Virus genome (UHGV): UHGV-0388215
DNA length: 42,019 bases
Strand: one strand, 5' to 3'
From: a virus
Below are positions 1-42,019 of the stretch, piece after piece. Within the stretch, counting starts at the first letter, position 1. Every line of letters begins with the position of its first letter. Both the position numbers and the translations under genes were made by a program. The notes beneath the pieces are model-generated. The model saw only the letters and a program-made list of their open reading frames with translations, was not told the origin of the DNA and ran no database searches.

Positions 1-978
1 CTCCAGTTCCTCGCCGTATTTCACGCCTTCGGCAAAGGCGCGGGATTCGGCGGGGTCTTCCGCATCAAGCCCGCAGGCGTCCATAGCTTTCTTGGTTTCT
101 TCGTCCATCGCTTCCTTTTTCTCCGGCTTCTCGTCGCCTGTTGCAGGGGAATAGGCCAGATCGGAGAGGGAGTCCGTCAGTTTTTTGACGTCCTCGGGGT
201 CGAGTTTGGCGGACAGTTCACCGATGAGCTTACGGATTTCCTCCGCCTTGTCCTCGTCTTCGGTGATATCCACGATTTCGCCAGTCACGGGGTCGACCTT
301 GTGCAGGTCGATGATGGCCTGCGCAAGCTCCACTTCCTGCTTTTCGATGTCCGGGTTGTCGTCTTGCGCGCCCCGGAACCATTTCTTAAACTTGCCCATA
401 AGCGTTCCTTTTTTCGTTGAAGTTGGATGAGAATCCGCCACCACCACGTCCGGCCCGGCCCGCCCTTCTTCGACCAGCGCGACGTGGTTGCCTCGGATGT
501 TCCGCATGATGAAATCGTAGGGGGTGCCCTCGTAGCTGCCCGGCGTGAAATCCGGGTCGTAACGGTAGGCGCAGGAGAGTTCCCGGAAAGAACCGTCTTC
601 AATGGCGTCGATGGCGGCCCGATCCCACACGGTCAGCGGCGCATCTACATACGGCGGGTTCCAGACCGCGCCCGTGCCCACCGCGCCCACGCGGGTGAGC
701 TTCTGCGGCTCTTCCGCGCTGTCGATGTGGTGCTCGATGTGCAGCGGCAGCCCGGCCCATGTCTCAAGCGATGCTTGAAGTTCTTCCGGGTCCCGAAGCC
801 CGTAATAGACAGCCTCGGGGTCAAGCCCGGCTTCCTGCCAGCCCGGAATCTCCCGCCCGTAATAGGGGTTCACCGTCGCTTTCGTGATGTGCGACGCCCC
901 GACGTGCAGGAACCCGTTCTCGTCGGTTTCCCGCTGTGAGGGAGCCGCGTCGAAGGTGACGCCTTTACTTTGATACAT
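1..978 (-). CDS. prohead protease/scaffold protein (Mu gpI-like), N-terminal 326 codons; ORF runs off the window start
   Basis: My own minus-strand translation from ATG at 976-978 ([10 protein letters not shown]...HIEHH...) is open to position 1 in the frame whose antisense is track ORF 427..939; position follows portal and gpF as in Mu; internal ATG at 397-399 with AAGGAA 8 nt upstream; C-terminal part carries [12 protein letters not shown]...[12 protein letters not shown] repeat also present in ORF 41285..42019. Confidence 0.5.
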
Positions 979-981
979 AGA

Positions 982-1785
982 CTAGTCTCCAAATTCAGGA
1001 ATAACGGCCCGGTACGTGCATTGGCACCCCGGAAGCTCACCGCAAAGCACTTTGCGCTTCACGTCAGAGTCGTAAAGACCTTCCGTGATGACGAACTTTT
1101 TCCCATTCATGAGCTGGTGGGTATGGCGGCTCGTTTTCTTTCCCGGCACATGTACCCAGATGCCTTCGGTGATGCCGAGTTCCTTGTCCTGCACCCGCTT
1201 AAGGGCCTCGGTCGCCTTATTGGACTGGTCGCGGGCAATGAATTCTGCCCGGCGCCGGGTGATCTCGTACCGCTTGTGCAGTTCGTCGGCGAGGAACTCC
1301 ACGTCCCGGCCCATGCTGGCGGAACGCTGTACTAGCCCCGTTACTTCCGTGAAATAGTGCTGCGGAATGGATTTGATGAGATTGACATTTTCCTCGAAGA
1401 GGGCCCGCGCCACGTCGCTCATGGCCCTGCTTCCCTCCATCCTCACCGTGAAGCCCGCATCTTTGAGGGCCTGCCTCATGCTGGCTTCCGTGCGCCGCCT
1501 CGTACTGCCCACGAACTCCCGTGCAAAACTCTCCGCGCTTTCCCTCCACCGCCTCGTCCAGTACCGGAACAGGCGCTTGAGGCGGTCTTGCAGGTCACTC
1601 GCCGGGGAATCCTGCGCTATGCGGGTTTCCTGCTTCCTGTACTCGGCGCGCAGCCACCAGATGACGGACCGCTGCATCTCGTCGAGGAGGGACACCAGCC
1701 GCTTCCGGTATTTCGCCCGGATACCCGCGTTGGGCTTAATGGAGCGGATGACCTTAGCCATAGACGGCCCCGGCCTTATCCACAT
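982..1785 (-). CDS. head morphogenesis protein (Mu gpF / SPP1 gp7 family)
   Basis: 267 aa; downstream of portal with 32-nt overlap; sequence character of Phage_Mu_F family (from memory, no search run). Confidence 0.7.
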   Translation of the reverse strand: MWIRPGPSMAKVIRSIKPNAGIRAKYRKRLVSLLDEMQRSVIWWLRAEYRKQETRIAQDSPASDLQDRLKRLFRYWTRRWRESAESFAREFVGSTRRRTEASMRQALKDAGFTVRMEGSRAMSDVARALFEENVNLIKSIPQHYFTEVTGLVQRSASMGRDVEFLADELHKRYEITRRRAEFIARDQSNKATEALKRVQDKELGITEGIWVHVPGKKTSRHTHQLMNGKKFVITEGLYDSDVKRKVLCGELPGCQCTYRAVIPEFGD

Positions 1786-3304
1786 CGTCGATGTCAGGCA
1801 TCAATCCCTCTTCCCCGGCTTCCGGCAGTGCGTCAGGCATTCCGTTGCCCTGCGGCACTTCCGCTGGGTCTATGTCGGAAAAACCGCTGTCCGGGTCACT
1901 GGCAAGGGACTGTCGGGCCTCTTCCTGAGAGATGACATCCCGATCCATGTAGACGGCGATGGTATCGGCCTTAGTCTTCTGGAGCGTCGCAAGGGCCGCC
2001 CTGTCCTCCCCTCCGAGGGGCGCGAAGTCGAACGTCACGGACGGATCGATGGTTCCGCGCAGGTGAAGCTGGATACAGTCGAGCGCCTTTTTGATGCCGT
2101 CGCGCAGGACTTTCTCCTGCTGGCTCGTGATATGGTCGTAATAGTTGCGGATGTCCGATTCGCCCGTGGCATTGAACCCGGACGGGCTGATGCCGAGCAG
2201 CTTGACCGCCGGAGTGCGGTTCAGGGCGGCGAGGATTTCGAGGGACTGGCGCACAATGTCGGTTACGCCGGAAAGCGGCGTTTCCAGCTTGACCACGTCT
2301 TCCGATTCTTTGTCGACGGCAAGCACGCCGTCATTGGTCATGGTCTGGATCATGTACCGGATGCGGGTATCGATCTGCGCGGTTCCCCCGGCTGAGTACA
2401 GGATGTCTTCCATCTTCGTCTTGAAGACGGTCAGCGAGAATTTGGTCAACAACCGGGCTTCCGCCGTGCGGCACTCCCGAAAGTGCATTACATAATCCCA
2501 AAGTGTCTGCGCCTGCGGGATGCCTAAAAAATTGTATGCGGGACGCAGCAGCACCGGGCATTCGTTCGCCACCAGCCGGATGAGCCGGGAAGCATGCACA
2601 CGCTGCCCAAGCACCCACCACCAGCGCGGACGGAAGTAGTCGGGTTCGAGCGGCGAAAGGCTGTTGTAGTCGCCGGGGAAAACGTTCACCGGGTCGATGA
2701 CGACGAAGCGCAGGAGTCCGCCGGGTTTCAGTTCCGCCGAGTACGGGCTGATGTTCAGTGGTCGCTCCAGCTCTTGCCCGATGGCCCCAGTGTCGATGAA
2801 GAGGAACGCGCCGCCCTCGTACCCCACAAGCTCCACGGCCTCATGAAAAAGACGCTGGAGCCCCAATTTCTTGCAAGCCTGTGCAAGGTCGGTAAGCAGG
2901 GCGTCATCGTTGCCCTCCCCTTCGCGCTTAAACTCAATCCATGCACGGGTCATGTCATCAGATACCGTCTGGATACAGGCCCGAACTAGACCATCCTGGG
3001 CAAGTTGCTGGAGAACACCGTACCCCATGAACTGGTTAGTGATCCCCACCCCAAGCTCAAGCGAGTGCTGGAGCAGGGAGTAGACGCCGGAATCCGCAAG
3101 CCGCGCGTCCATCGCAAGCTGCACCTCTTCGGGCGCGCCGAGCGTCTTCGCAGGACCGTACATCCGGCTGATGTCGTCGGGCGTAGGCGGCAAAGGTTGA
3201 GCAAGGCCGCCGCGCACGTCCGGGGAGAGATTCAGACGGCGCGACGGCTGCACGGCTTGCGGGGCTATGGAGGTAGCGTGGCGATAAGTGCGCTTCTTGC
3301 TCAT
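1754..3304 (-). CDS. portal protein (Mu gp29-like, DUF935)
   Basis: 516 aa; size and composition typical of DUF935 portals; lies between terminase large subunit and gpF-like gene. Confidence 0.75.
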   Translation of the reverse strand: MSKKRTYRHATSIAPQAVQPSRRLNLSPDVRGGLAQPLPPTPDDISRMYGPAKTLGAPEEVQLAMDARLADSGVYSLLQHSLELGVGITNQFMGYGVLQQLAQDGLVRACIQTVSDDMTRAWIEFKREGEGNDDALLTDLAQACKKLGLQRLFHEAVELVGYEGGAFLFIDTGAIGQELERPLNISPYSAELKPGGLLRFVVIDPVNVFPGDYNSLSPLEPDYFRPRWWWVLGQRVHASRLIRLVANECPVLLRPAYNFLGIPQAQTLWDYVMHFRECRTAEARLLTKFSLTVFKTKMEDILYSAGGTAQIDTRIRYMIQTMTNDGVLAVDKESEDVVKLETPLSGVTDIVRQSLEILAALNRTPAVKLLGISPSGFNATGESDIRNYYDHITSQQEKVLRDGIKKALDCIQLHLRGTIDPSVTFDFAPLGGEDRAALATLQKTKADTIAVYMDRDVISQEEARQSLASDPDSGFSDIDPAEVPQGNGMPDALPEAGEEGLMPDIDDVDKAGAVYG

Positions 3305-3347: not shown

Positions 3348-3365
3348 AAGGTTCGGGGGGCTTGG
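3348..3365 (-). promoter_or_regulatory. late-operon motif CACCGTGAACAAGGTTCG (copy 1), upstream of portal gene
   Basis: One of four near-identical copies (3348, 7976, 35198, 36059), each 25-70 nt upstream of a minus-strand late gene; contains dyad GAAC-N3-GTTC. Confidence 0.6.
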
Positions 3366-3440
3366 CTGTGGGGCACCTTTCATATTGTATCAATATAGAT
3401 TAATCTATATATACATAGATACCTTTAGGGAGGTATCCGC

Positions 3441-4187
3441 ATGTACAAAAGCATCATGGTGTTTCTGCTGGCCGCGCTAGTTATGACGTCCGAGGCGCAA
3501 GCCGCGGGCAACGAATGGAACGATTCGTTCAGCAAGGCTAAAAAGACGCTGGAACGGCAGGTCTATTATGACCATCGGATCACGCTCTACTGCGGGGCGG
3601 CGTTCGACGAGAAGAAGAACGTCACTCTCCCGGAGGGTTTTACTGCCGCGAAGCACGAGAAGCGGGCCGGGAAGGTGGAATGGGAACACGTGGTCCCCGC
3701 CGAGAACTTCGGGCAGGCGTTCGCTGAGTGGCGCGAGGGCGACGCGCAGTGCGTGGACAACAGGGGAAAGGCGTTCAAAGGCCGCAAGTGCGCCGAGAAG
3801 GTCAGCCGGGAATACAGGCTCATGCAGGCTGACCTGTACAATCTGTATCCGGCCATCGGCGCGGTGAATGCCCTACGCCAGAACTACAACTTTCAGATGT
3901 TGCCGGGAGAAAAGCCGGACTTCGGGAGTTGTGAGATGAAGATTGCGGACAGAAAGGCCGAGCCGCCTATCAGATCAAGGGGACAAATTGCCCGGACCTA
4001 CAAGTATATGGCCGACGCCTACGCCCCGCGCTACCGCATGAGCCGCCAGCAGACGCAGCTCATGGACGCATGGGACAAGATGTATCCGGTTGATGCGTGG
4101 GAATGCACGCGGGCCAGACGTATTGAAAGACTACAAGGTAACGAGAACCCTTTTGTGAAGGAAAGATGTCAAGAAGCAGGACTCTAA
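3441..4187 (+). CDS. endA: secreted DNA endonuclease I (EndA/Dns family) with N-terminal signal peptide
   Basis: MYKSIMVFLLAALVMTSEAQA signal peptide; motifs EWEHVVPAENFG and DLYNLYPAIGAVNALRQNYNF match Endonuclease_1 family (E. coli EndA); opposite strand to flanking structural genes; AT-rich upstream region with palindrome ATAGATTAATCTAT. Confidence 0.8.
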   Translation: MYKSIMVFLLAALVMTSEAQAAGNEWNDSFSKAKKTLERQVYYDHRITLYCGAAFDEKKNVTLPEGFTAAKHEKRAGKVEWEHVVPAENFGQAFAEWREGDAQCVDNRGKAFKGRKCAEKVSREYRLMQADLYNLYPAIGAVNALRQNYNFQMLPGEKPDFGSCEMKIADRKAEPPIRSRGQIARTYKYMADAYAPRYRMSRQQTQLMDAWDKMYPVDAWECTRARRIERLQGNENPFVKERCQEAGL

Positions 4188-4201
4188 CTCTTTACATTCA
4201 T

Positions 4202-5662
4202 TTATATTCTCCTTCCCATACGTGGCTGATTGAGGATGGCGGGGTTGATGCACATGGGCCGCTTGGTATCGAAATCACGCAGCGCCTGCGTGGTGGCGTC
4301 CACTTGGTCGTCGTGGGGCGCTCCGGGGAACTGCGTCAGTTCCGCGACGTACTCCCGCGCCCACGGGCAATGCTCCGGGTGCGGAAGCAGGACGTTCCCG
4401 GCCTCGAAGAACGTGGTCACGGCATGGGCACGGGCGGTCTTGCTGCCGTCCGGCTCTACCGGAATAATACCGGGCACGGCATGTCTCAGCGCGTCGATGA
4501 CCGCCGGGCCGTTGGCCTTGTCCTCCACCAGCTTGCGGGCTGCGCCGGGCCATTTGGCGGCGAGCGCCCGGAACGCGGCGACCGTGTCCGTAAATCCCAT
4601 GCGCCGCCGGACCTGATCGAGGAGGTAGCGGTCGGCCCCCTTGCGGCCCCACACCTGCCCCACGACAAAGTCGGTATCGTCGCCGTCCTTGAACGTCATG
4701 TCCCACGAGATAAGGAGCTGGTCGAACTGCTCCGGCAGGTCTTTGGGGAGCCAGAACCGCAGCCACTCAGATTTGAAGATGGCGCCGCCGTCTGGGGTAG
4801 GCCGCTGCTGGTACAGGGCCTCCCAGTCGCGTGTGCCGAGGGCTTTCTTGATGGCAAGAAGCTGCTCCAACGAGTAGCGTTCCGGGTGCAGGGCTTCCCC
4901 GGCCTTGCGGTGGGGCTCGTCTTCCGTGGCGATGGCGGGGAAGTTCACCACGCGCCAGTGATCGCCCTCCCCCCGCGCCGCCGCTTCGAGCAGCCGCCCC
5001 GAGAGGTCGGCCATGTGCCAGCGGGTGTTGATGACGAGGATGCCCCCGCCGGGCGCGAGGCGCGTGTACAACGTGGACGTGTACCAGTCCCAGACGTTCT
5101 GGCGGTTGGTCGGGGAATCGGCGGACGCCCGATCTTTGAATGGGTCGTCGACGATGACGATATGCCCGCCCATGCCCGTGATGCCGCCGCCCACGCCAGC
5201 GGAACGGTAGCAGCCAGCGTGACCCACGATTTCGAAGATATCCGAGTTGCGGAGATAAGAACCGTTCCCGACGGTGCGGATATTCTTGCCGTAAAGGGCT
5301 GTTCCCGGGAAGAGTTCCCGGTATTCCGGACTGTCGATGACGCGCTGAACGTCGCGGTTCATGCGCGAGGACAGGTCGGCGGCGTAGCTCGTTGAAATGA
5401 CGGATAGATCGGGATAGCGGCCCAAGGCGTAGGCCGGGAAGCGGCGGGAGGCCAGCTCGCTTTTCCCGTGGCGGGGCGGCATGGTCAGCATGAGGCGCGG
5501 GGAACGCCCGGCTACGACGTCGGCAAGGAAGGCATCCAGCTCGGAACAGATTTCCTCGTGCACCCAGCCCATGCGGTAGCCGGGCATGGTGTAGCGCACA
5601 AAGGCCGCGAGACAGCTCCGGGCCAGCGCGCGGCGGATTTCCGCAAGCACTTCACCCGCCAT
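4202..5662 (-). CDS. terminase large subunit
   Basis: 486 aa; Walker A-like MPPRHGKS, Walker B-like VIVDDP, C-terminal nuclease acidic motif DDQVDA. Confidence 0.9.
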   Translation of the reverse strand: MAGEVLAEIRRALARSCLAAFVRYTMPGYRMGWVHEEICSELDAFLADVVAGRSPRLMLTMPPRHGKSELASRRFPAYALGRYPDLSVISTSYAADLSSRMNRDVQRVIDSPEYRELFPGTALYGKNIRTVGNGSYLRNSDIFEIVGHAGCYRSAGVGGGITGMGGHIVIVDDPFKDRASADSPTNRQNVWDWYTSTLYTRLAPGGGILVINTRWHMADLSGRLLEAAARGEGDHWRVVNFPAIATEDEPHRKAGEALHPERYSLEQLLAIKKALGTRDWEALYQQRPTPDGGAIFKSEWLRFWLPKDLPEQFDQLLISWDMTFKDGDDTDFVVGQVWGRKGADRYLLDQVRRRMGFTDTVAAFRALAAKWPGAARKLVEDKANGPAVIDALRHAVPGIIPVEPDGSKTARAHAVTTFFEAGNVLLPHPEHCPWAREYVAELTQFPGAPHDDQVDATTQALRDFDTKRPMCINPAILNQPRMGRRI

Positions 5663-11889: not shown

Positions 11890-12666
11890 ATGTATAAAAA
11901 TCATGTTTTAAATAACACTATGAAATCTCTACTTGATTCTGCTCTGGCTGTGATTCAGGGCTACATTGAAAAAAATCACGATGGGAATGTGGCTTCAGCG
12001 GCTAGGTCGCTCGATGTTAGCGTTCCCACTCTTCACACTTGGCTGAAAGGCACTAGGATACCTAGTTTTAGTAAAATGGCTCCTTTATTAGAAAAAATAG
12101 GTGCATATATTGTCAGCCCTGATGAAAAAGACATATCTCGAGAAGTCTGTTTCGTTGATGCTAAGGTAGCCCCAGCCGGAGAAGACCTTCCCCCTCCCCC
12201 GGATGAAGATTATCTTGCTGTCCCTCTGGTCGAAGAGGTCGGGGCTGGACCCGGTATCATTCCACAAGGACAACTTATCTCATGGTTCCTTGTCTGGCGT
12301 CATCAACGAGCAATTCAACATAAACGCGACCTTATCGCCGTTATGCTCGGTAAGCACTCCACATCTATGGTTCCCACGCTCAAGCCACAAGACATTGTGC
12401 TTGTAGACCGACAAGATAAAGACGTGATGAACTTCAAAGGTAGGATCATGCTTGTCCTCGATCCTTTCGACGGTAGCGGGAAAATCAAGCGTGTAGCGGC
12501 AGAAAACCAGCCGAAAAAGCGCGACTATCGCATCACCTACTATTCGGATAACGCCGCCGAGAATCCCCCCGAGGTCTACAGCCTTATGGAAGACTTCGAT
12601 GGCGACTGGAACAAGTCCATCGTCGGGCGCGTCGTATGGGCGTGGAGTGACGTGAGCTGCAAATAG
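11890..12666 (+). CDS. CI-like prophage repressor (N-terminal HTH, C-terminal S24 LexA-type peptidase)
   Basis: 258 aa; C-terminal ...VLVDRQDKDVMNFKGRIMLVLDPFDGSGKIKRVAAE... S24 fold with Ser/Lys dyad context; divergent to cro. Confidence 0.8.
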   Translation: MYKNHVLNNTMKSLLDSALAVIQGYIEKNHDGNVASAARSLDVSVPTLHTWLKGTRIPSFSKMAPLLEKIGAYIVSPDEKDISREVCFVDAKVAPAGEDLPPPPDEDYLAVPLVEEVGAGPGIIPQGQLISWFLVWRHQRAIQHKRDLIAVMLGKHSTSMVPTLKPQDIVLVDRQDKDVMNFKGRIMLVLDPFDGSGKIKRVAAENQPKKRDYRITYYSDNAAENPPEVYSLMEDFDGDWNKSIVGRVVWAWSDVSCK

Positions 12667-12761
12667 CTCCCTATGAGTACATAGAAACCGCCCTCACCGT
12701 ATTTAGCCGTCCACATCGCTATAATAGGCAAGCCGTTAGCTAAGATATCTTCCATCATTCC

Positions 12762-12790
12762 TCCGGCCCCTCCCATGAGGGGCTTTTTTT
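12762..12790 (+). terminator. rho-independent terminator after repressor gene
   Basis: GCCCCTC-CCAT-GAGGGGC hairpin followed by TTTTTTT. Confidence 0.6.
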
Positions 12791-12881
12791 GTGGCCGCCA
12801 AGCGTGACCGCCGATGCCTTCATGGTGTCGGCGGTTATTGTTTTATCTCGTATTTATGCTTTTGTAAATTTACACTGGACA

Positions 12882-12910
12882 AAGCATTCTACATTTGTAT
12901 ATTATGACTT
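12882..12910 (+). promoter_or_regulatory. near-consensus sigma70 promoter (TGGACA-17-TATATT)
   Basis: ttacacTGGACAaagcattctacatttgTATATTatgac; drives leader and ORF 13213..13671. Confidence 0.5.
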
Positions 12911-13212
12911 CACGACGAACGGGAAAGGCGAGTGGCGCGGCAACGGCCCGCTGAAAGCTGGAACCGGACGGAGGAAGCCCCAACAAGTACGAGCACGGCA
13001 AGCGCAAGCCTTTGGGAGCGGGAAGCACGCGACGGCAGGAAATGGGGTGATGTGGAGACAGGCCGCGTAGGGACGGCGGGACGGAAAAACGGCTGAAAAG
13101 AAGGCCGAAGCGTAAAGCGCACCGAAGCGACGGGGGCCGAGCCGACCAACAGGGCCCACGGTTACGACACAAAGATCGGGCCGTGAAACGTGATGAATGA
13201 AAAATAGAGGAT
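12911..13212 (+). ncRNA. about 300-nt purine-rich, T-depleted leader / candidate structured RNA
   Basis: Only about 21 T in about 290 nt on plus strand; all three minus frames open (track ORFs 12870..13271, 12902..13261, 12910..13149 are artefacts of this); no convincing coding frame on plus. Confidence 0.3.
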
Positions 13213-13671
13213 ATGGATATGAGCACTTTTCTTTCTGAAATGGAAATTGCGCGCAAGGCATACAATGACACAGAACTTTTTACCTTTGAACCTTCCGATA
13301 CGTTTTATTGGCGCGATATTCTCAATAATGCAAAGGATAAAGGTTTCGTTAATGACGTTAAGGAATGGCAACGGTTGCCGGGGGAACAAAAGGAAGACGC
13401 ATTGATTGCTCTTTATGAAAAGCTGTTGACCGCATACGACGAGGAGATTCTTAGCATTGATACTGTCGTTGTTAAGGATGTTCTTTTAAGCACTGGCGGC
13501 CCTGCTTCCGGCATTGAATTCCGCCTGATTGATGGTGGCGATTCATACGAATTTCAGAGTGCCAGGTACTGGCATCAGGAATGGTTCACGCCTCGGCAAT
13601 ATTCGCCAATCCCAGACGATATAGGCGAAAAGATGTTTCAACATTTTGGGTTTGAATATAAACAAAGATAG
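13213..13671 (+). CDS. acidic hypothetical protein, immediate-early moron (candidate anti-restriction/anti-defence)
   Basis: 152 aa, D/E-rich, lower GC than surroundings, own promoter and terminator, located between repressor and early-left operon. Confidence 0.45.
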   Translation: MDMSTFLSEMEIARKAYNDTELFTFEPSDTFYWRDILNNAKDKGFVNDVKEWQRLPGEQKEDALIALYEKLLTAYDEEILSIDTVVVKDVLLSTGGPASGIEFRLIDGGDSYEFQSARYWHQEWFTPRQYSPIPDDIGEKMFQHFGFEYKQR

Positions 13672-13756
13672 CTACTTAAGGTTTCTGAGGTATCTGCAAA
13701 GACTTCGGTGTCATGCCCGGCATCTTAAACCGCCTAGCCCTGTAGAAGCCCCGATA

Positions 13757-13785
13757 AGTCGGGGCTTTTTCATCGGGATTGGGAC
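13757..13785 (+). terminator. rho-independent terminator
   Basis: GCCCCGA-TAAG-TCGGGGC hairpin followed by TTTTTC. Confidence 0.55.
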
Positions 13786-13818
13786 GCCAAACCAAACATC
13801 AAAAACGAGGGTATTTCT

Positions 13819-14169
13819 ATGTGTTACGGCACGAACTGCGGGCGTGAGGGGGCCTTTGGAACCTGCTATCACCCGGAAGACTGCATCATGCGCGCCATTG
13901 AGCGCGACGCGGAAGAAAACCTTGCCGCGCGGCTGGCACACGACACGGCCCTGAGCCGGGAACATTTCCCCTGCCCCAACTGCCTTGAACAGGGCGAACG
14001 CCACAGCCTCACCTATGAAAACGGCCTGTTTACCTGCCCGGAATGCGGCGGGGAATGCGACGCGGCGGAACTCATCGCGCTCTATGATGATATACGCGCC
14101 GGGCATGTTTCCGATGCCGAAGTCGTCGGCCTGTGGATTGAAAAGCTCGACGCAAGGAGGGTCGCATGA
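13819..14169 (+). CDS. Cys-rich (zinc-ribbon) hypothetical protein
   Basis: 116 aa; CPNC...CPEC pairs; first gene of early-left operon. Confidence 0.4.
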   Translation: MCYGTNCGREGAFGTCYHPEDCIMRAIERDAEENLAARLAHDTALSREHFPCPNCLEQGERHSLTYENGLFTCPECGGECDAAELIALYDDIRAGHVSDAEVVGLWIEKLDARRVA

Positions 14170-14372
14170 GCGCCGCCATCTTCTGCCCGCACTGCAAGCT
14201 CAAGTACGACAAGGCCGTGAGGCTCAGGAGGCACCGCGACTTCTGGATCTGCTCGTCCTGCGCGGAATACTACACCGCCGAGACGCTGGTCACGGCGTGC
14301 GAGAACGCCGCACGGTCGTTTCTGGCAAAGGCCAACTACCTCAAAATCATGGCACGGAGGGCAGCGGCATGA
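14166..14372 (+). CDS. zinc-ribbon hypothetical protein
   Basis: 68 aa; CPHC...CSSC; ATGA coupling both sides. Confidence 0.4.
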   Translation: MSAAIFCPHCKLKYDKAVRLRRHRDFWICSSCAEYYTAETLVTACENAARSFLAKANYLKIMARRAAA

Positions 14373-14527
14373 TTTCCAACGTCTACATGAAGCACGCCAA
14401 GGTATCTTTGGAACGGCCTAAAAAGGTTGACCGGGCTAGAGTTGCTGCGGTCATCATCTTTATGTCGGTCATGCTTGGGATCTGCATTCTTCCACAGATC
14501 TTGTACGGGATGGAGGCCATGCGATGA
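14369..14527 (+). CDS. small membrane protein (52 aa)
   Basis: ATG at 14369 overlapping previous stop; one TM helix (VAAVIIFMSVMLGICILPQIL); ATGA coupling to next gene. Confidence 0.3.
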   Translation: MISNVYMKHAKVSLERPKKVDRARVAAVIIFMSVMLGICILPQILYGMEAMR

Positions 14528-15297
14528 ATAAGGCTGACGCAGCATACTTCTCCAACAAAGCTCTTTCCAAAAGTGCCATCGACCTGTTGCTTGAATGTCC
14601 TGCTCTTTACAAAGCGTGGTTGGAGGGCGTGGACGACGAGCAGGAATCCAAGGCCCTTTCCTTCGGCAGTATGTTCCATCTTCTCTGCCTTCAACCTGAG
14701 CTGTTCGCCAACGAGTTCGCCGTCACCGACATCAATCTCTCCACGAAGGCAGGACGGGAGTGGAAAAAAGGCATCCCGGACACTGTGACCATCGTCAAGC
14801 AGGAGGACTACGAAAAGGCCCTGCTCATGTCCGAGGCAGTCCGGGAGCACCCACAGGCCAAGTGCCTTTTTAGGCACTACACTGCGGAACAGCCCATTTA
14901 CTGGATGCGCGACGGCATCGAATGCAAGGCCAAGCCGGACATCGTTTCTACCGTTTTCGGGCAACGCTTCTGTGCCGACCTCAAAACCACGGAGAGCGCG
15001 AACCCAGAGGCCATCCAGCGCACCATCGCGAAATACGGCTACCATCGGCAGGCCGCTTGGTATCTCGATGGGATGAAAGCCATAGGCCAACCCTGCGAGG
15101 CGTTCATCTTCATCTTTGTCGAAAAAACATTCCCGCACCTCGTCACCATGTGCCAGCTCGACGAGGATGCCCTGCAAAAGGGGCTATCCGAGTGTCTGTC
15201 CGCTGTCGAAAGCCTCAAGCGTTGCCTGAACTCGGGAACCTTTCCCTGCTACACCAGAGACATTTTAACCATCAGTCTGCCCAAGTGGGCGGCATAA
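14524..15297 (+). CDS. PD-(D/E)XK exonuclease, Cas4/RecB-like with Cys cluster
   Basis: D..CADLKTTE (D/ExK) and GYHRQAAWY (QhxxY) motifs; four Cys (N-terminal C plus C-terminal C..C....C) as in Cas4 Fe-S nucleases; upstream of recT. Confidence 0.7.
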   Translation: MNKADAAYFSNKALSKSAIDLLLECPALYKAWLEGVDDEQESKALSFGSMFHLLCLQPELFANEFAVTDINLSTKAGREWKKGIPDTVTIVKQEDYEKALLMSEAVREHPQAKCLFRHYTAEQPIYWMRDGIECKAKPDIVSTVFGQRFCADLKTTESANPEAIQRTIAKYGYHRQAAWYLDGMKAIGQPCEAFIFIFVEKTFPHLVTMCQLDEDALQKGLSECLSAVESLKRCLNSGTFPCYTRDILTISLPKWAA

Positions 15298-19586: not shown

Positions 19587-19778
19587 ATGAGTGAGGCAGA
19601 AAAACTGCAAAAAATTGCCCAGATTATGTTGGAAAAAGAGAAGAAAGAAAAAGAAGTTGCAGCACTTAACCGCATGATTGCCGAACTTCTAGGAATATCC
19701 TCTACAGAAACAATGAAATTACCGAACAAGGTCTATTCATCAAATCAGTTTAAAGCTGCATGTAGGGGGGCAAAGTGA
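19587..19778 (+). CDS. small basic/coiled-coil protein, positional candidate for excisionase (RDF)
   Basis: 63 aa, low GC, GTGA overlap with integrase start; assignment by position only. Confidence 0.3.
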   Translation: MSEAEKLQKIAQIMLEKEKKEKEVAALNRMIAELLGISSTETMKLPNKVYSSNQFKAACRGAK

Positions 19779-20773
19779 GTTGGTCACAGAGATCTGACGG
19801 TCGATTCATTGTTAAATACAAAGACAAAGGACTATGGAAGCAGATTTCTTTCACAGATAAAGAGAAGGCCATACACTTTGACGCAATGCATAACGCTCCA
19901 AAAGAAGAAATTCGTCTCACTATGGGAGAATTGATCGTCAAGTATCTACATGGAAATCCGGATCTTTTTCATGAAACACGCGAGCGCATTATCTGGTTGT
20001 ATGCCGATGGTGGTCCATGCGCCTTCATGCGCGACAAATATGCAGATTCTCTAAATCGCCAAGACCTCGAACAGCTTCGGGAAAACATACGGGAACGCAA
20101 AGCCAGCAACAACACGTCAAACCACTATCAAGCATATACAAGGGCAATATTGGCGTGGGGAGTCGATCAAGGTCTACTTGTGCTTAACCCTTGGCGAGAT
20201 TTCAAAAAACTTAAAATATCAAAACCAATTCATACCGCAACGTTACTAGATCTGAAACGCTTATATCCTTTTCTTCCTCCCTATCTGCAATGGGCCGCAA
20301 AGACGGCCTTTTTTTTGGCACTTCGCCCGGGGATGGTTGAGCTTTTCAGCTTGAAATGGGATGCCTTCGATTTTAGGCGGGGAATCGTCTCAATCCGGCA
20401 AGGAAAAACAGGAAAGATCAAAAGTGTCTATCCGAACCCTGTGTACATGCAAGAAGCCGCCGCACGCTGTGCCGAAGACTTTAAACGAGGGGTAGCGCTG
20501 GTTTGCCACAACAACGGGAAACCAGTTCTGTCTTACCATAAGATGTGGGGAAAGGCGTGCCGACAGGCAGGGGTCAATTTACGATTCTATGACGTTCGAC
20601 ATCTTGCGGCTACGGAAATGCTCGCCCGTGGCGCTGACCTCGCCGCAGTCGCCGCGCAACTCGGTCACGCATCAGTCACGACAACCGGAAGCACATATGC
20701 CCACGTTACCCCGGGAGGGCAATCACATGCCGGATCACTCATGCCCGCAATCGACATCGAACCGAACTCATAA
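19775..20773 (+). CDS. int: tyrosine integrase
   Basis: 332 aa; catalytic R...HxxR (VRHLAAT) ... H..Y (HASVTTTGSTYAHV) arrangement; GTG start; lower GC; adjacent to tRNA-derived att core. Confidence 0.9.
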   Translation: MSWSQRSDGRFIVKYKDKGLWKQISFTDKEKAIHFDAMHNAPKEEIRLTMGELIVKYLHGNPDLFHETRERIIWLYADGGPCAFMRDKYADSLNRQDLEQLRENIRERKASNNTSNHYQAYTRAILAWGVDQGLLVLNPWRDFKKLKISKPIHTATLLDLKRLYPFLPPYLQWAAKTAFFLALRPGMVELFSLKWDAFDFRRGIVSIRQGKTGKIKSVYPNPVYMQEAAARCAEDFKRGVALVCHNNGKPVLSYHKMWGKACRQAGVNLRFYDVRHLAATEMLARGADLAAVAAQLGHASVTTTGSTYAHVTPGGQSHAGSLMPAIDIEPNS

Positions 20774-36179: not shown

Positions 36180-36779
36180 ATGGCTACCTACATCAAGTTT
36201 CTGGCAGGGGACTACGGGAAAGAAGAATATATTTACATTAAGAATAAAAACAAGTTGCGTTGCTCTTCAAAAATGTTTGGAGCAAAGGAACTTTTTCTTT
36301 CCAGTATTGCCTCTTGCGAAGTAGCCAATGAAGAATCGGTCAAAAAGCTCGGCGGAACTTTGGGAGGCGCACTTGTCGGCGGCGTCTTGCTTGGAGGCAT
36401 CGGAGCGGTTGCGGGTGCGGTAGCTGGAGGCAAGACGACTGAGTCTACCGTCATTATTGAGTTCAAAAATGGAAATAAGGCATTGGCAAAGGTGAATAGC
36501 CCCATGATGGAGGTTATCCGCGCACACCTTTTTGATGACCAATTGGCCCAAGAGCGTGGAGAACCAAACCCGCTTATACATCATGAACGTTCTCAGACGC
36601 CCCCTAAAAAAATTGCCCTTATCATTGGAGTGCTGATAACAGTAGTGCTAGCCGTATTGTGGCTGAGTTGTGCCCTCCAAACGCCGCCCAATACGAATGG
36701 GGCCTTGTTATGGGGAATCCTCACTATCCTTTCCGGACTGTATTCTTGGAAAACATATAAGAAAATATATAAATCTTAA
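36180..36779 (+). CDS. membrane protein with glycine-zipper segment and two C-terminal TM helices
   Basis: 199 aa, low GC; GGTLGGALVGGVLLGGIGAVAGAVAGG GxxxG array; C-terminal TM helices IALIIGVLITVVLAVLWL and LLWGILTILSGLYSW. Confidence 0.5.
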   Translation: MATYIKFLAGDYGKEEYIYIKNKNKLRCSSKMFGAKELFLSSIASCEVANEESVKKLGGTLGGALVGGVLLGGIGAVAGAVAGGKTTESTVIIEFKNGNKALAKVNSPMMEVIRAHLFDDQLAQERGEPNPLIHHERSQTPPKKIALIIGVLITVVLAVLWLSCALQTPPNTNGALLWGILTILSGLYSWKTYKKIYKS

Positions 36780-36814
36780 TATATTAACTTGAATCCGAAC
36801 AGGGAGAGAGGACC

Positions 36815-37885
36815 ATGGATTTTTCGGAAAGAATTGCTGAATTGTCGAAAAAGGTAAAGAATCTGGGAGATAGCCTCAAGACCGAAGAGGCCACGAAAAA
36901 CGCCTTGGTGATGCCTTTCATCGCGGCCCTGGGATACGACGTTTTCAACCCTGCGGAAGTCGTGCCCGAATTTTCAGCCCCCATCGGCGAATATAAGGAC
37001 GCCCGCGTGGACTATGCGATTCTTGTGGACGGCAAGCCTATCCTTCTTCTGGAGTGCAAGGCTTTGGGCACGTCTCTCGACATGAAGCACTGCAACCAGC
37101 TACAGCTTTACTTCCACGGAACGGAAGCCCCCATTGCCATCCTGACGGACGGCAACCGTTACCGGTTCTATTCTGATCTTGAAACAGCCAACAAAATGGA
37201 CAGCAAGCCCTATATGGAGTTCGTCCTTGACGATATGGACGAAATGTTGCTCCCGGAACTGCGCAAGCTGGCAAAAGGCAAGTTTGATCGGGATGCCTGC
37301 ATGAGCGCGGCAAACGAACTCAAGTACAACCGAGAGTTCAAACGCCTCATGTCCGAACAAATGGAAAAGCCGCATGAAGATTTCGCACGCTTTTTCATCG
37401 GCCAGACGTATGATGGACGTATCACGCAAAATGTTCTGGATCGCTTCACTCCAATTCTTACCGCTGCGCTTGACCAGTTCATCAACGACCGCATCAACGA
37501 CCGATTGAAAAATGCCATGACGCAGCAGAAACCGGAAATTGTAGAGATAGAGTCCGAAGATACCCCACAAGGAAAAGAGCAGGATTCGCGTATAGTCACC
37601 ACCGAGGAAGAAAAAGAGGCGTATTACCTTGTCAAATCGCTTCTGATGGGCACCGTTGATCCGGGGCGCGTAGCCATGCGGGACAGTATCAGCTACTGCT
37701 CCATCCTTCTTGACGACAACAGGCTCAAGCCTCTGTGCCGCCTGTATTTCAACGGAAAACAGTGGAGGGTCGGACTGTTTGATGGGGAGAATAAGGACGC
37801 AAAGGAAGACATCGAAAAACTGGAAGATATTATCCCCTTTGCGGATCGAATCCGGGCTACGGCCTTGAAATACGATAACAAGTAA
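36815..37885 (+). CDS. HsdR-N (type I restriction R-subunit N-terminal, PD-(D/E)XK-like) domain protein with helical C-terminal domain
   Basis: EEATKNALVMPFIAALGYDV...GEYKDARVDYAIL.DGKPILLLECKALGTSLD...QLQLYFHGTEAPIAILTDGNRYRFY matches HSDR_N consensus (E..K..LV.PFL..LGY...GR.DYAL...P...IEAK...L...Q...Y..FAILTNG.....Y); low GC. Confidence 0.6.
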   Translation: MDFSERIAELSKKVKNLGDSLKTEEATKNALVMPFIAALGYDVFNPAEVVPEFSAPIGEYKDARVDYAILVDGKPILLLECKALGTSLDMKHCNQLQLYFHGTEAPIAILTDGNRYRFYSDLETANKMDSKPYMEFVLDDMDEMLLPELRKLAKGKFDRDACMSAANELKYNREFKRLMSEQMEKPHEDFARFFIGQTYDGRITQNVLDRFTPILTAALDQFINDRINDRLKNAMTQQKPEIVEIESEDTPQGKEQDSRIVTTEEEKEAYYLVKSLLMGTVDPGRVAMRDSISYCSILLDDNRLKPLCRLYFNGKQWRVGLFDGENKDAKEDIEKLEDIIPFADRIRATALKYDNK

Positions 37886-38236
37886 AACTTTCCAACGTGG
37901 CGTTGCCCGCCAATGATGAAGAACATCCAGATGCGGGCAATGCCACTGCTTTTCTCTTTACATTTTCCGAGTTTTGTGCTGTCTTTTGTGCACGGGCTTC
38001 AGAACCCCGTAGGCGGACAAACGCCACCCGATAGCATGGCGCTTTTTTATGCCCTTTTTCCAAAGTCAAGAGTTTTTCTTGGCTGTCTTTTGGGCTATTA
38101 TTGCATCCAATGTTTGCCGGGTGTGGCGGATATGTCCAAGCGAAAGCTAAAGGCCGCCAGCGGTTCCTACGCCGTTCTGAACACCCGGCGCTTTCTATTT
38201 CAGAGAGTGCAATTCAGACAACGTAGGAGTTGCATT

Positions 38237-39154
38237 ATGGAAATGGCCCTAATCTTCAACGAATTTATCTTCACGCCTGTCACTCACCAAAACAGTCTCT
38301 GGATTCGTTCTTCTGAATTGGCTAAAGCACTTGGCTATTCCGACGACCGCAAGGTTGGTGTGCTCTATGCCCGACATAAGGATGAATTCTCCAATAATAT
38401 GAGCGTGGTTCTCAATTTGAGTACCACGGATGTACCCGCTATGAATCGCATCTTTTCCCTTCGGGGCTGCCATTTGGTTGCGATGCTAGCGCGTACTCCT
38501 ATTGCCAAGGCGTTCCGCCGTTGGGTGCTGGATGTGATTGAACAGTACGGCGACAGGGTGCCCGTTGCCGAACCCGTGACGCTCAACGATGAGCTGATCA
38601 GCGCGTCGGAACGTGCCGAGCTCAAGCTCATCGTAGACGCCAAGCTCTCGACCTACCCGGCGGCGGTGCAGGGCAAGGCCCGCGCCGAGATATGGGCAAA
38701 GTTCAACCGCCACTTCCGCATTGCCGAATACAAGCAGCTCCCGGCCCGGCTTATGCCCGAGGCCCGCGAGTTCCTGCTTTCCGTCCGCGTCCGCGCCATC
38801 AACGCCATACCCACGGCGGAATCCGCGCTCCCGTACCCGTCGCTTACCACCTCCAGCGTCTACGCCGACCGCATGAAGGCCCTCGACCGCCTCGAAGAGG
38901 AATGGATCGAATTTGCGGGGGAAACCCGCTCTCGGCTGCACCAATTCGTCAACGAGCTCCTGCGCGTCAAGGAGAGCACTTATCCCGAATTGCTGAACCG
39001 GATATGTTCCCGGCAGAACATCTCGAAAGACCCGCTCCTCGGCATCCTGCAATCCAACTCGTACAACGCCCAGACGTGGATTGACGCGGGAATCTCGGAA
39101 ATGAGAGCGGCAATCCGTGCCGCGAAGACCGCGAACAGGTTGATGCTAGGATAG
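38237..39154 (+). CDS. Bro-N domain antirepressor-like protein
   Basis: Start at MEMALIFNEFIFTPV...LWIRSSELAKALGYSD (Bro-N/AntA pattern) with AGGAG RBS 7 nt upstream; upstream part of track ORF 37913.. judged non-coding. Confidence 0.55.
   Translation: MEMALIFNEFIFTPVTHQNSLWIRSSELAKALGYSDDRKVGVLYARHKDEFSNNMSVVLNLSTTDVPAMNRIFSLRGCHLVAMLARTPIAKAFRRWVLDVIEQYGDRVPVAEPVTLNDELISASERAELKLIVDAKLSTYPAAVQGKARAEIWAKFNRHFRIAEYKQLPARLMPEAREFLLSVRVRAINAIPTAESALPYPSLTTSSVYADRMKALDRLEEEWIEFAGETRSRLHQFVNELLRVKESTYPELLNRICSRQNISKDPLLGILQSNSYNAQTWIDAGISEMRAAIRAAKTANRLMLG

Positions 39155-41284: not shown

Positions 41285-42019
<735 letters not shown>

Follow-up and report, generated by a model that had tools for sequence, protein, structure and literature searches.

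According to PMC12378983, Dns of CJIE1, a Mu-like prophage of Campylobacter jejuni, contains an endonuclease domain of the kind seen in secreted or periplasmic endonucleases, and its deletion restores natural transformation. The periplasmic ICE nucleases IdeA and SxnA (Vibrio cholerae) likewise inhibit transformation and degrade incoming DNA (PMC12378983). The Dns of V. cholerae limits transformation, shapes biofilm and makes DNA usable as a source of phosphate (PMC3212620), the DNases of Campylobacter prophages can clear biofilm (PMC4372405), and the Streptococcus pyogenes prophage DNases Spd1 and Sda1 are secreted and degrade NETs (PMC3258162). Neither the enzyme nor the concept considered here is new, as a transformation-blocking prophage endonuclease I, CJIE1 Dns, is already published (summarised in PMC12378983). 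Among 50,697 phage records in GenBank, seven match the EndA protein analysed here, five of the seven being Helicobacter or Campylobacter prophages, with annotation as 'Endonuclease I precursor' or 'deoxyribonuclease'. What is new is the setting, a lineage of Bilophila phages that had not been described and whose insertion hotspot is unusually well documented. The Campylobacter finding of a prophage-carried endonuclease I is thereby extended to a second bacterial group, in which it is a recurrent cargo of several unrelated prophages.

The window, by which we mean the whole 42,019-nucleotide stretch of viral DNA that was analysed, carries an endA-like gene in the position given in Table 1. As the sequence-only reading had claimed, the gene lies on the strand opposite to its neighbours, whose products match Phage_portal_3 and Terminase_6N/6C. 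It resembles CJIE1 Dns and the Helicobacter and Campylobacter prophage homologues in being a prophage-borne endonuclease I-type DNase carried as accessory cargo, with export predicted in this case, but the Campylobacter and Helicobacter homologues are only about 30% identical to the protein from the window. The carriers also differ: CJIE1 is Mu-like, whereas the phage in the window is of the Phage_portal_3, Terminase_6 and integrase type and has a Desulfovibrionaceae host that is not known to be competent. The Helicobacter pullorum gene lies a few genes from a Gam homologue, while endA in the window lies between terL and portal. With IdeA and SxnA the likeness is that of a periplasmic DNase (a predicted location for the EndA of the window) on a mobile element, although their carrier is an ICE and not a phage. 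Spd1 and Sda1 offer a parallel as secreted beta-beta-alpha-metal DNases acting as lysogenic-conversion genes at the edge of a prophage module, a role that would be comparable here, but they belong to another nuclease family (the DNA/RNA non-specific type), have a Gram-positive host and have a demonstrated NET-degrading role in virulence.

Table 1. Features of the endA locus and of the phage that carries it (positions in the window)
Feature	Position	Strand	Remarks
Mu-F-like head protein	982..1785	-	
Portal gene	1754..3304	-	Phage_portal_3, E 1.5e-80; left border of hotspot
Cassette-borne upstream region with putative sigma70-like promoter and ribosome binding site	3357..3440	+	Absent from empty-site phages
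Perfect 18-bp palindrome ATATAGATTAATCTATAT, candidate operator	3393..3410	.	In the -35/-10 spacer, overlaps the putative -10
Predicted Sec-type signal peptide, residues 1-21	3441..3503	+	Predicted cleavage between AQA and AG; read from sequence
endA-like gene, predicted exported Mg2+-dependent non-specific endonuclease I	3441..4187	+	Pfam, PDB Vvn, catalytic residues, AF2, dN/dS
Gap between the convergent endA and terL stop codons, 14 bp	4188..4201	.	
Large terminase gene (terL)	4202..5662	-	Terminase_6N/6C; right border of hotspot
Tyrosine integrase gene	19775..20773		

The open reading frame encodes 248 amino acids from an ATG start, with a ribosome binding site, GGGAGG, 8 nt upstream of the ATG (the coordinates in Table 1 include the stop codon). 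The segment 3366-4187, which had been proposed as the gene, does contain this frame, but 3366 is not its start, as it takes in part of the upstream region. The proposal that the product is an endonuclease I of the EndA/Dns type, together with the suggested search with the Endonuclease_1 model, is borne out: the protein matches Pfam PF04231 with 105.9 bits (cut-off 25; E 3.6e-30) and Vvn in the PDB (1ouo) with E 2e-51. The crystal-structure matches comprise Vvn and the endonuclease I of V. cholerae and V. salmonicida (E 2e-51 to 2e-47), and the unannotated PHROG 6861 is also matched. The score of 194.7 bits against the E. coli EndA equivalog model (NCBIfam NF011716 / PRK15137) is below the cut-off of 372, and the protein is therefore a family member rather than an EndA orthologue.

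In PMC5758888 and PMC3258162, His80 of Vvn is given as the general base, Glu79 and Asn127 as metal (Mg2+) ligands and Arg99 as the contact to the scissile phosphate. In a HMMER alignment numbered after Vvn, for which the H80A mutant chain 1oup served as the anchor, K28, E79, H80, R99, K100 and N127 of Vvn correspond to K34, E82, H83, R115, K116 and N143 of the endA product, and the general-base His83 falls within the motif EWEH (residues 80-83). All the Vvn active-site residues are present, in agreement with the catalytic motifs noticed earlier, and these six positions show no variation across 29 homologues of 66-94% identity. What sets the protein apart from the chromosomal endonuclease I, besides the score below the equivalog cut-off, are two substitutions in the alignment with Vvn (W85 to E88 and E113 to Q129), a 13-residue insertion at 101-113, after W97, and the presence of six cysteines, four of which align with Vvn cysteines, in place of the eight found in Vvn. 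The AlphaFold2 model of the product is of moderate confidence (pLDDT 77, pTM 0.73), with low confidence around N143. When searched against the PDB, it matches endonuclease I structures only, with E 5.6e-16 to 7e-14, target TM 0.83-0.86 and rmsd 2.6-2.7 A, the next match having an E of 0.8. The protein shares with Vvn, V. cholerae Dns (VcEndA) and E. coli EndA the Pfam family, about 44-50% identity, a similar predicted structure and the catalytic residues, and is predicted to have a signal peptide as they do, whereas those are core chromosomal genes and the endA of the window is phage-borne. Judged by its sequence, endA is a genuine member of the endonuclease I family with its active-site residues intact, and the modelled fold is of the Vvn type. 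As for the enzymology, we consider that this lysogen-borne gene very probably encodes a working Mg2+-dependent DNase.

A Sec-type signal peptide, as proposed in the earlier reading, can also be read from the sequence. The N-terminus reads MYK-SIMVFLLAALVMT-SEAQA, followed by AG after the cleavage point, and has a hydrophobic core, an AxA site and the typical n-h-c layout. The Cys of a lipobox was looked for in this N-terminus and is absent. The predicted signal peptide aligns immediately N-terminal of the residue at which the crystallised mature chain of Vvn begins, and an equivalent hydrophobic N-terminus is found in all homologues. The endA product is therefore predicted to carry a Sec-type export signal.

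To our knowledge the phages of Bilophila wadsworthia, a sulfide-producing gut pathobiont, are essentially undescribed. When the ends of the window are joined (1..978 and 41285..42019) they yield an unbroken Pa193_gp24-like head gene of 570 aa, which is 98% identical to its counterpart in the relative L004, and the window has no terminal repeat. The restored head gene indicates that the window is a closed circular genome of 42,019 bp cut inside this gene. In addition to the integrase it encodes RecT, a PD-(D/E)XK exonuclease, a Peptidase_M15_3 family protein and RusA; searches found no Rfam match and no tRNAs, and a DNA-level search of GenBank phages with the window gave no match. A prophage of B. 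wadsworthia ATCC 49260 has a TerL 97% identical and an EndA 98% identical to those of the window, from which we conclude that the host is B. wadsworthia. The integrase, RecT, the closed circle and the ATCC 49260 prophage together support a temperate phage, as had been assumed from the sequence. Exact copies of the EndA protein occur in 293 blocks of the metagenome collection, with the order portal, endA, terL in all eight places shown.

The possibility that endA is a moron, also raised by the sequence-only reading, can be assessed directly from related phages. A set of 121 loci was collected via TerL, and every locus was scored for TerL, EndA and portal. Close relatives were defined by a TerL of at least 94% identity, which left 27 scorable loci once those retrieved through EndA itself were excluded. 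An intact endA is present in 15 of the 27, a remnant in one (L095), and no endA in the other 11 (about 40%); the gene is therefore dispensable. At five loci whose TerL is 96-97% identical (L059, L060, L064, L065 and L072), the TerL-portal junction is empty and measures 61 bp. Elsewhere endA is the sole cargo (the window, L001-L008, L014, L055, L057, L058, L070, L087 and L097), is accompanied by a gene for an ORF6N-domain antirepressor-like protein (L061, L069 and L084), or is found with the ORF6N gene and a gene pair that consists of a SocA/Panacea-domain gene and its 137-aa partner (L063, L066 and L076). The same junction may also hold cargo other than endA, namely the ORF6N gene alone (L062), a 208-aa lipoprotein (L016) or an IS200/IS605 element (L073). 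In relatives with TerL of at most 80% identity endA is found in none, and the terL-portal spacing is about 30-260 bp where both genes are on the locus. In near-identical phages, then, endA is present or absent at one junction, where sister phages have an empty site or a different cargo, and by this distribution it is a true moron.

The edges of the insertion can be placed by aligning filled and empty sites. The portal leader, from 3305 to about 3356 (GAACCTTGTTCACGGTGT...), is common to both, and the homology with empty sites stops at ...AACAAGGTTCGG, at about 3356. The cassette accordingly begins on the left at about 3357, and on the right it ends at the terL stop codon. The tail of TerL varies with the cargo, ending in RMGRRI* where endA is alone, in RIGYRFR* or RIGCRFR* at empty sites and in R(M/I)G.RRIGGI* (for example RMGLRRIGGI*) with ORF6N-type cargo. 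This variation in the final 6-10 TerL codons means that the recombination junctions lie within the terL tail. A terminator scan found none 3' of endA, and the folding computed for the RNA beyond the gene is no better than that of shuffles (z = +0.78). The decayed endA of L095 (7447-7837) consists of codons 15-105 only and is joined to a G+C-rich hairpin, CCTCCCCCG-ACTTCAGG-CGGGGGAGG, directly after the terL stop.

The region upstream of endA was thought to be an AT-rich promoter region of its own. Its AT-richness is clear, with a GC content of 29.5% at 3380-3440 compared with a mean of 57.6% for the window, but a strict scan for sigma70 consensus promoters and for terminators between 3000 and 4700 found none. 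A candidate is formed by a -35 of TTGTAT (3386-3391), a 17-nt spacer and a -10 of TATATA (3409-3414), the -10 lacking the final T, and the assignment of TTGTAT/TATATA as a promoter is putative. The palindrome that had been quoted as ATAGATTAATCTAT is present and is longer than quoted, forming the perfect 18-mer listed in Table 1. It fills the 17-nt spacer and overlaps the -10, which in a promoter of this kind would be a typical site for a repressor to bind. Alleles differ in how many TA repeats they have at the putative -10 (3409-3416 in the window), the sequence being CTATATATACAT in the window, CTATATACAT in the ATCC 49260 prophage (L014) and CTATATAAACAT in L055; such differences would alter the spacing of the promoter.

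The palindrome occurs as a single copy in the window even with three mismatches or flexible spacing (0 of 100 shuffles), and it is conserved only along with endA. An exact scan of IMG/VR for it gave 63 loci. On high-GC contigs, the perfect copies with a checkable flank all lie about 30 bp upstream of endA, and one more lies 31 nt from a contig end; the other perfect copies are on unrelated low-GC contigs (27-32% GC). A one-mismatch variant is found mostly on unrelated AT-rich contigs, inside a coding region in one case (L145) and in an iteron-flanked, origin-like region in two others (L163 and L197). A search for a regulon or operator network based on the palindrome, in the window and IMG/VR, found no support. 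We rejected control by the phage repressor, as the AT-rich repeats of the immunity region (11.7-11.9 kb) are unrelated to the palindrome. A comparison by eye with the Fur, CRP/FNR and Pho boxes showed that the spacing does not fit; we make no claim in this respect. From its position and its conservation with endA, the palindrome could plausibly serve as the operator for a host factor, and we put it forward as a candidate.

A homologue of endA at 87% identity is found in a chromosomal context (L009), amid genes for an MFS transporter, RecQ and an amidohydrolase, whose products are assigned by their sources to an uncultured Bilophila sp. This chromosomal copy is rare, falling in a cluster of 4 members compared with 33-1876 for its neighbours. 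About 75 bp of upstream sequence is homologous between the phage alleles and L009, comprising TTGT(A/C)T, the palindrome, CATG and GGAGGTATCCGCATG. The symmetry of the palindrome is 8/9 in L009 and 6/9 in L127, an 83% allele. As L009 has the same putative promoter and palindrome, we conclude that the gene and its control region move as one unit. More distant homologues, at 71-75% identity, are likewise found within mobile elements or beside them. Desulfovibrio falkowii GCA_045865545.1, a single contig of 3.34 Mb, has three paralogues of endonuclease I (L012, L136 and L137), which share about 70-71% identity with the protein from the window; two of them belong to the tail-distal cargo of related prophages, and the third has an ORF6N gene as its neighbour. 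One further homologue is in a prophage cargo region and another abuts a cluster of small phage-like genes. The upstream regions of the distant copies are unrelated to that of the window, and each of these copies overlaps the stop codon of an ORF upstream, a small one in the case of the D. falkowii copies.

The endA gene is under strong purifying selection, with pairwise dN/dS of 0.055-0.11 in all informative comparisons, including those of phage with phage. The idea of a degenerate passenger gene was ruled out by these values (0.06-0.11). For the same phage pairs, dS is 0.12-0.45 in endA, no higher than in terL (0.24-0.41) or portal (0.39-0.48), and identical EndA proteins are found on backbones with portal proteins only 93-95% identical. 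Both observations fit with either long residence or cassette exchange within the lineage. The deviant composition often expected of a moron is not seen in the coding sequence, which has a GC content of 57.4% compared with 57.6% for the window and a GC3 of 0.74 compared with 0.75-0.83 in its neighbours; only the 61-bp upstream region deviates. The phage-like GC content of the coding sequence would fit an origin within Bilophila.

We favour the reading that endA is a lysogeny-expressed periplasmic or extracellular DNase that would destroy exogenous DNA. In this proposal endA would be transcribed in the prophage from a promoter that belongs to the gene, in the direction opposite to the late operon, and the pre-protein would be exported by Sec and cut after Ala21. 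In the periplasm it would fold with three disulfides, from six cysteines of which four align with Vvn. The mature enzyme would act as a beta-beta-alpha-metal non-specific endonuclease, with His83 as the base, Glu82 and Asn143 holding the metal and Arg115 contacting the scissile phosphate; the residues and the fold are those described above, and the activity is predicted from them. Extracellular DNA would be cut to oligonucleotides. By destroying DNA in the periplasm and the medium, the lysogen might take up less foreign DNA and the prophage might be shielded from replacement, as with CJIE1 Dns. The presence of the promoter and palindrome on the chromosomal Bilophila copy also suggests that a host factor, and not a phage repressor, probably controls expression. 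That the stretch from about 3357 to 4201, with its putative AT-rich promoter, palindrome, ribosome binding site and endA, is a self-contained moron cassette for a DNase acting in the lysogen seems to us moderately probable. A role specifically in transformation or on extracellular DNA is more tentative, a possibility drawn by analogy. The phenotypes that have been proposed for such a gene, a barrier to superinfection or transformation and the degradation of biofilm or NETs, have their precedents in Campylobacter, Vibrio and Streptococcus. A literature search for natural competence in Bilophila or Desulfovibrionaceae found nothing, and as competence is not documented for Bilophila, the benefit of a transformation barrier may not apply.

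The location of endA within the late packaging and head module could suggest instead a helper of the lytic cycle, in which DNase released at lysis digests the viscous host DNA and the matrix of extracellular DNA, and virions disperse to new cells. A non-specific secreted nuclease would be suited to such a job, and as endA is convergent with terL with no terminator between them, co-regulation with the late region is possible. We nevertheless regard this as unlikely. The gene is antisense to the late operon, whose transcription would run into it; a chromosomal copy outside any phage has the same promoter region; and about 40% of the sister phages do without the gene while their packaging genes are otherwise identical. 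Furthermore, such a role needs no export before lysis. The promoter shared with the host copy would, on the other hand, suit a metabolic regulon, and the gene might serve nutrition or host interaction only, with extracellular DNA scavenged for phosphate or nucleotides in the gut, or with escape from DNA traps or biofilm, gene flow being unaffected. The growth of V. cholerae on DNA as a phosphate source and its control of biofilm through Dns, the dissolution of biofilm by Campylobacter prophage DNases and the degradation of NETs by streptococcal ones (PMC3258162) are all in keeping with this. This support is wholly by analogy, however, Pho-box-like direct repeats are not evident upstream of endA, and the benefit to the phage itself would be less direct, and we think this explanation improbable.

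In the old T-even literature, endonuclease I of E. coli degrades the DNA of superinfecting phages when this DNA goes astray into the periplasm. A periplasmic EndA might similarly degrade incoming phage or plasmid DNA exposed there and so act as a barrier to superinfection or an anti-phage system. The other cargo of the hotspot is partly of a conflict type, with the SocA/Panacea toxin-antitoxin-like pair and the ORF6N antirepressor-like genes, which is consistent with such a function. Yet most phages deliver their DNA through a protected channel, and the T-even case needs a separate exclusion protein, while endA is often alone in the junction and no such partner is linked to it. None of the PADLOC defence models matches EndA, and we judge a role as such a barrier to be very improbable. 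Returning to a DNase that acts on exogenous DNA in the lysogen, a bolder version can be formulated, in which promoter, palindrome and endA form a mobile, host-regulated cassette common to Bilophila chromosomes and phages, gut Desulfovibrionaceae are naturally transformable, and EndA is an anti-curing device of the prophage switched by a host regulator on the 18-bp palindrome. We offer this as speculation and consider it quite improbable. If it were true, the uptake of free DNA would be a major force in gut Desulfovibrionaceae. This version would draw on the purifying selection, on the fact that most members (over half) of this Bilophila phage lineage, which is widespread in the human gut, have the gene, and on the multi-copy prophage cargo of Desulfovibrio.

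The terL-portal junction provides a natural experiment, as it is available in empty, filled, multi-cargo and decayed forms and the type strain ATCC 49260 carries the near-identical prophage. The locus therefore allows the effects of a prophage DNase on extracellular DNA, biofilm, gene uptake and prophage stability to be studied directly in a gut anaerobe.

Several other features of this phage lineage were observed in the course of the analysis. In the sister phages L071 (7369-8433), L073, L074 and L107 from IMG/VR, TerL has an in-frame insertion of about 340 aa with the hallmarks of an intein, which starts CFAAGTLV... and finishes ...VLVHN, followed by Cys. Within it is a 213-aa ORF for an HNH_3 endonuclease (E 1.3e-15) in a frame that differs from that of the intein and TerL, which is odd for a homing endonuclease. 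The TerL of the window is without this insertion and reads ...DDQVDATTQ... around 4290-4320. A second variable cargo region, at 36180..39154 in the window, adjoins the major capsid gene and encodes a Bro-N protein, an HSDR_N-domain protein and the product of a 199-aa ORF; in L008 the ORF at this position is also 199 aa long and is annotated as PH_gly_zipper. In L001, L003, L005 and L006 (1771-3646) this second region has an AcrIF11-type ADP-ribosyltransferase, of an anti-CRISPR family, and after it a protein of 463 aa that matches Cas_Csy2 weakly. L006 also has, at 12613-15171, just upstream of terS/terL, genes of the NAD-dependent epimerase/dehydratase family, the TAGT family and a ParB_N-like type, which may together form a DNA-modification module.
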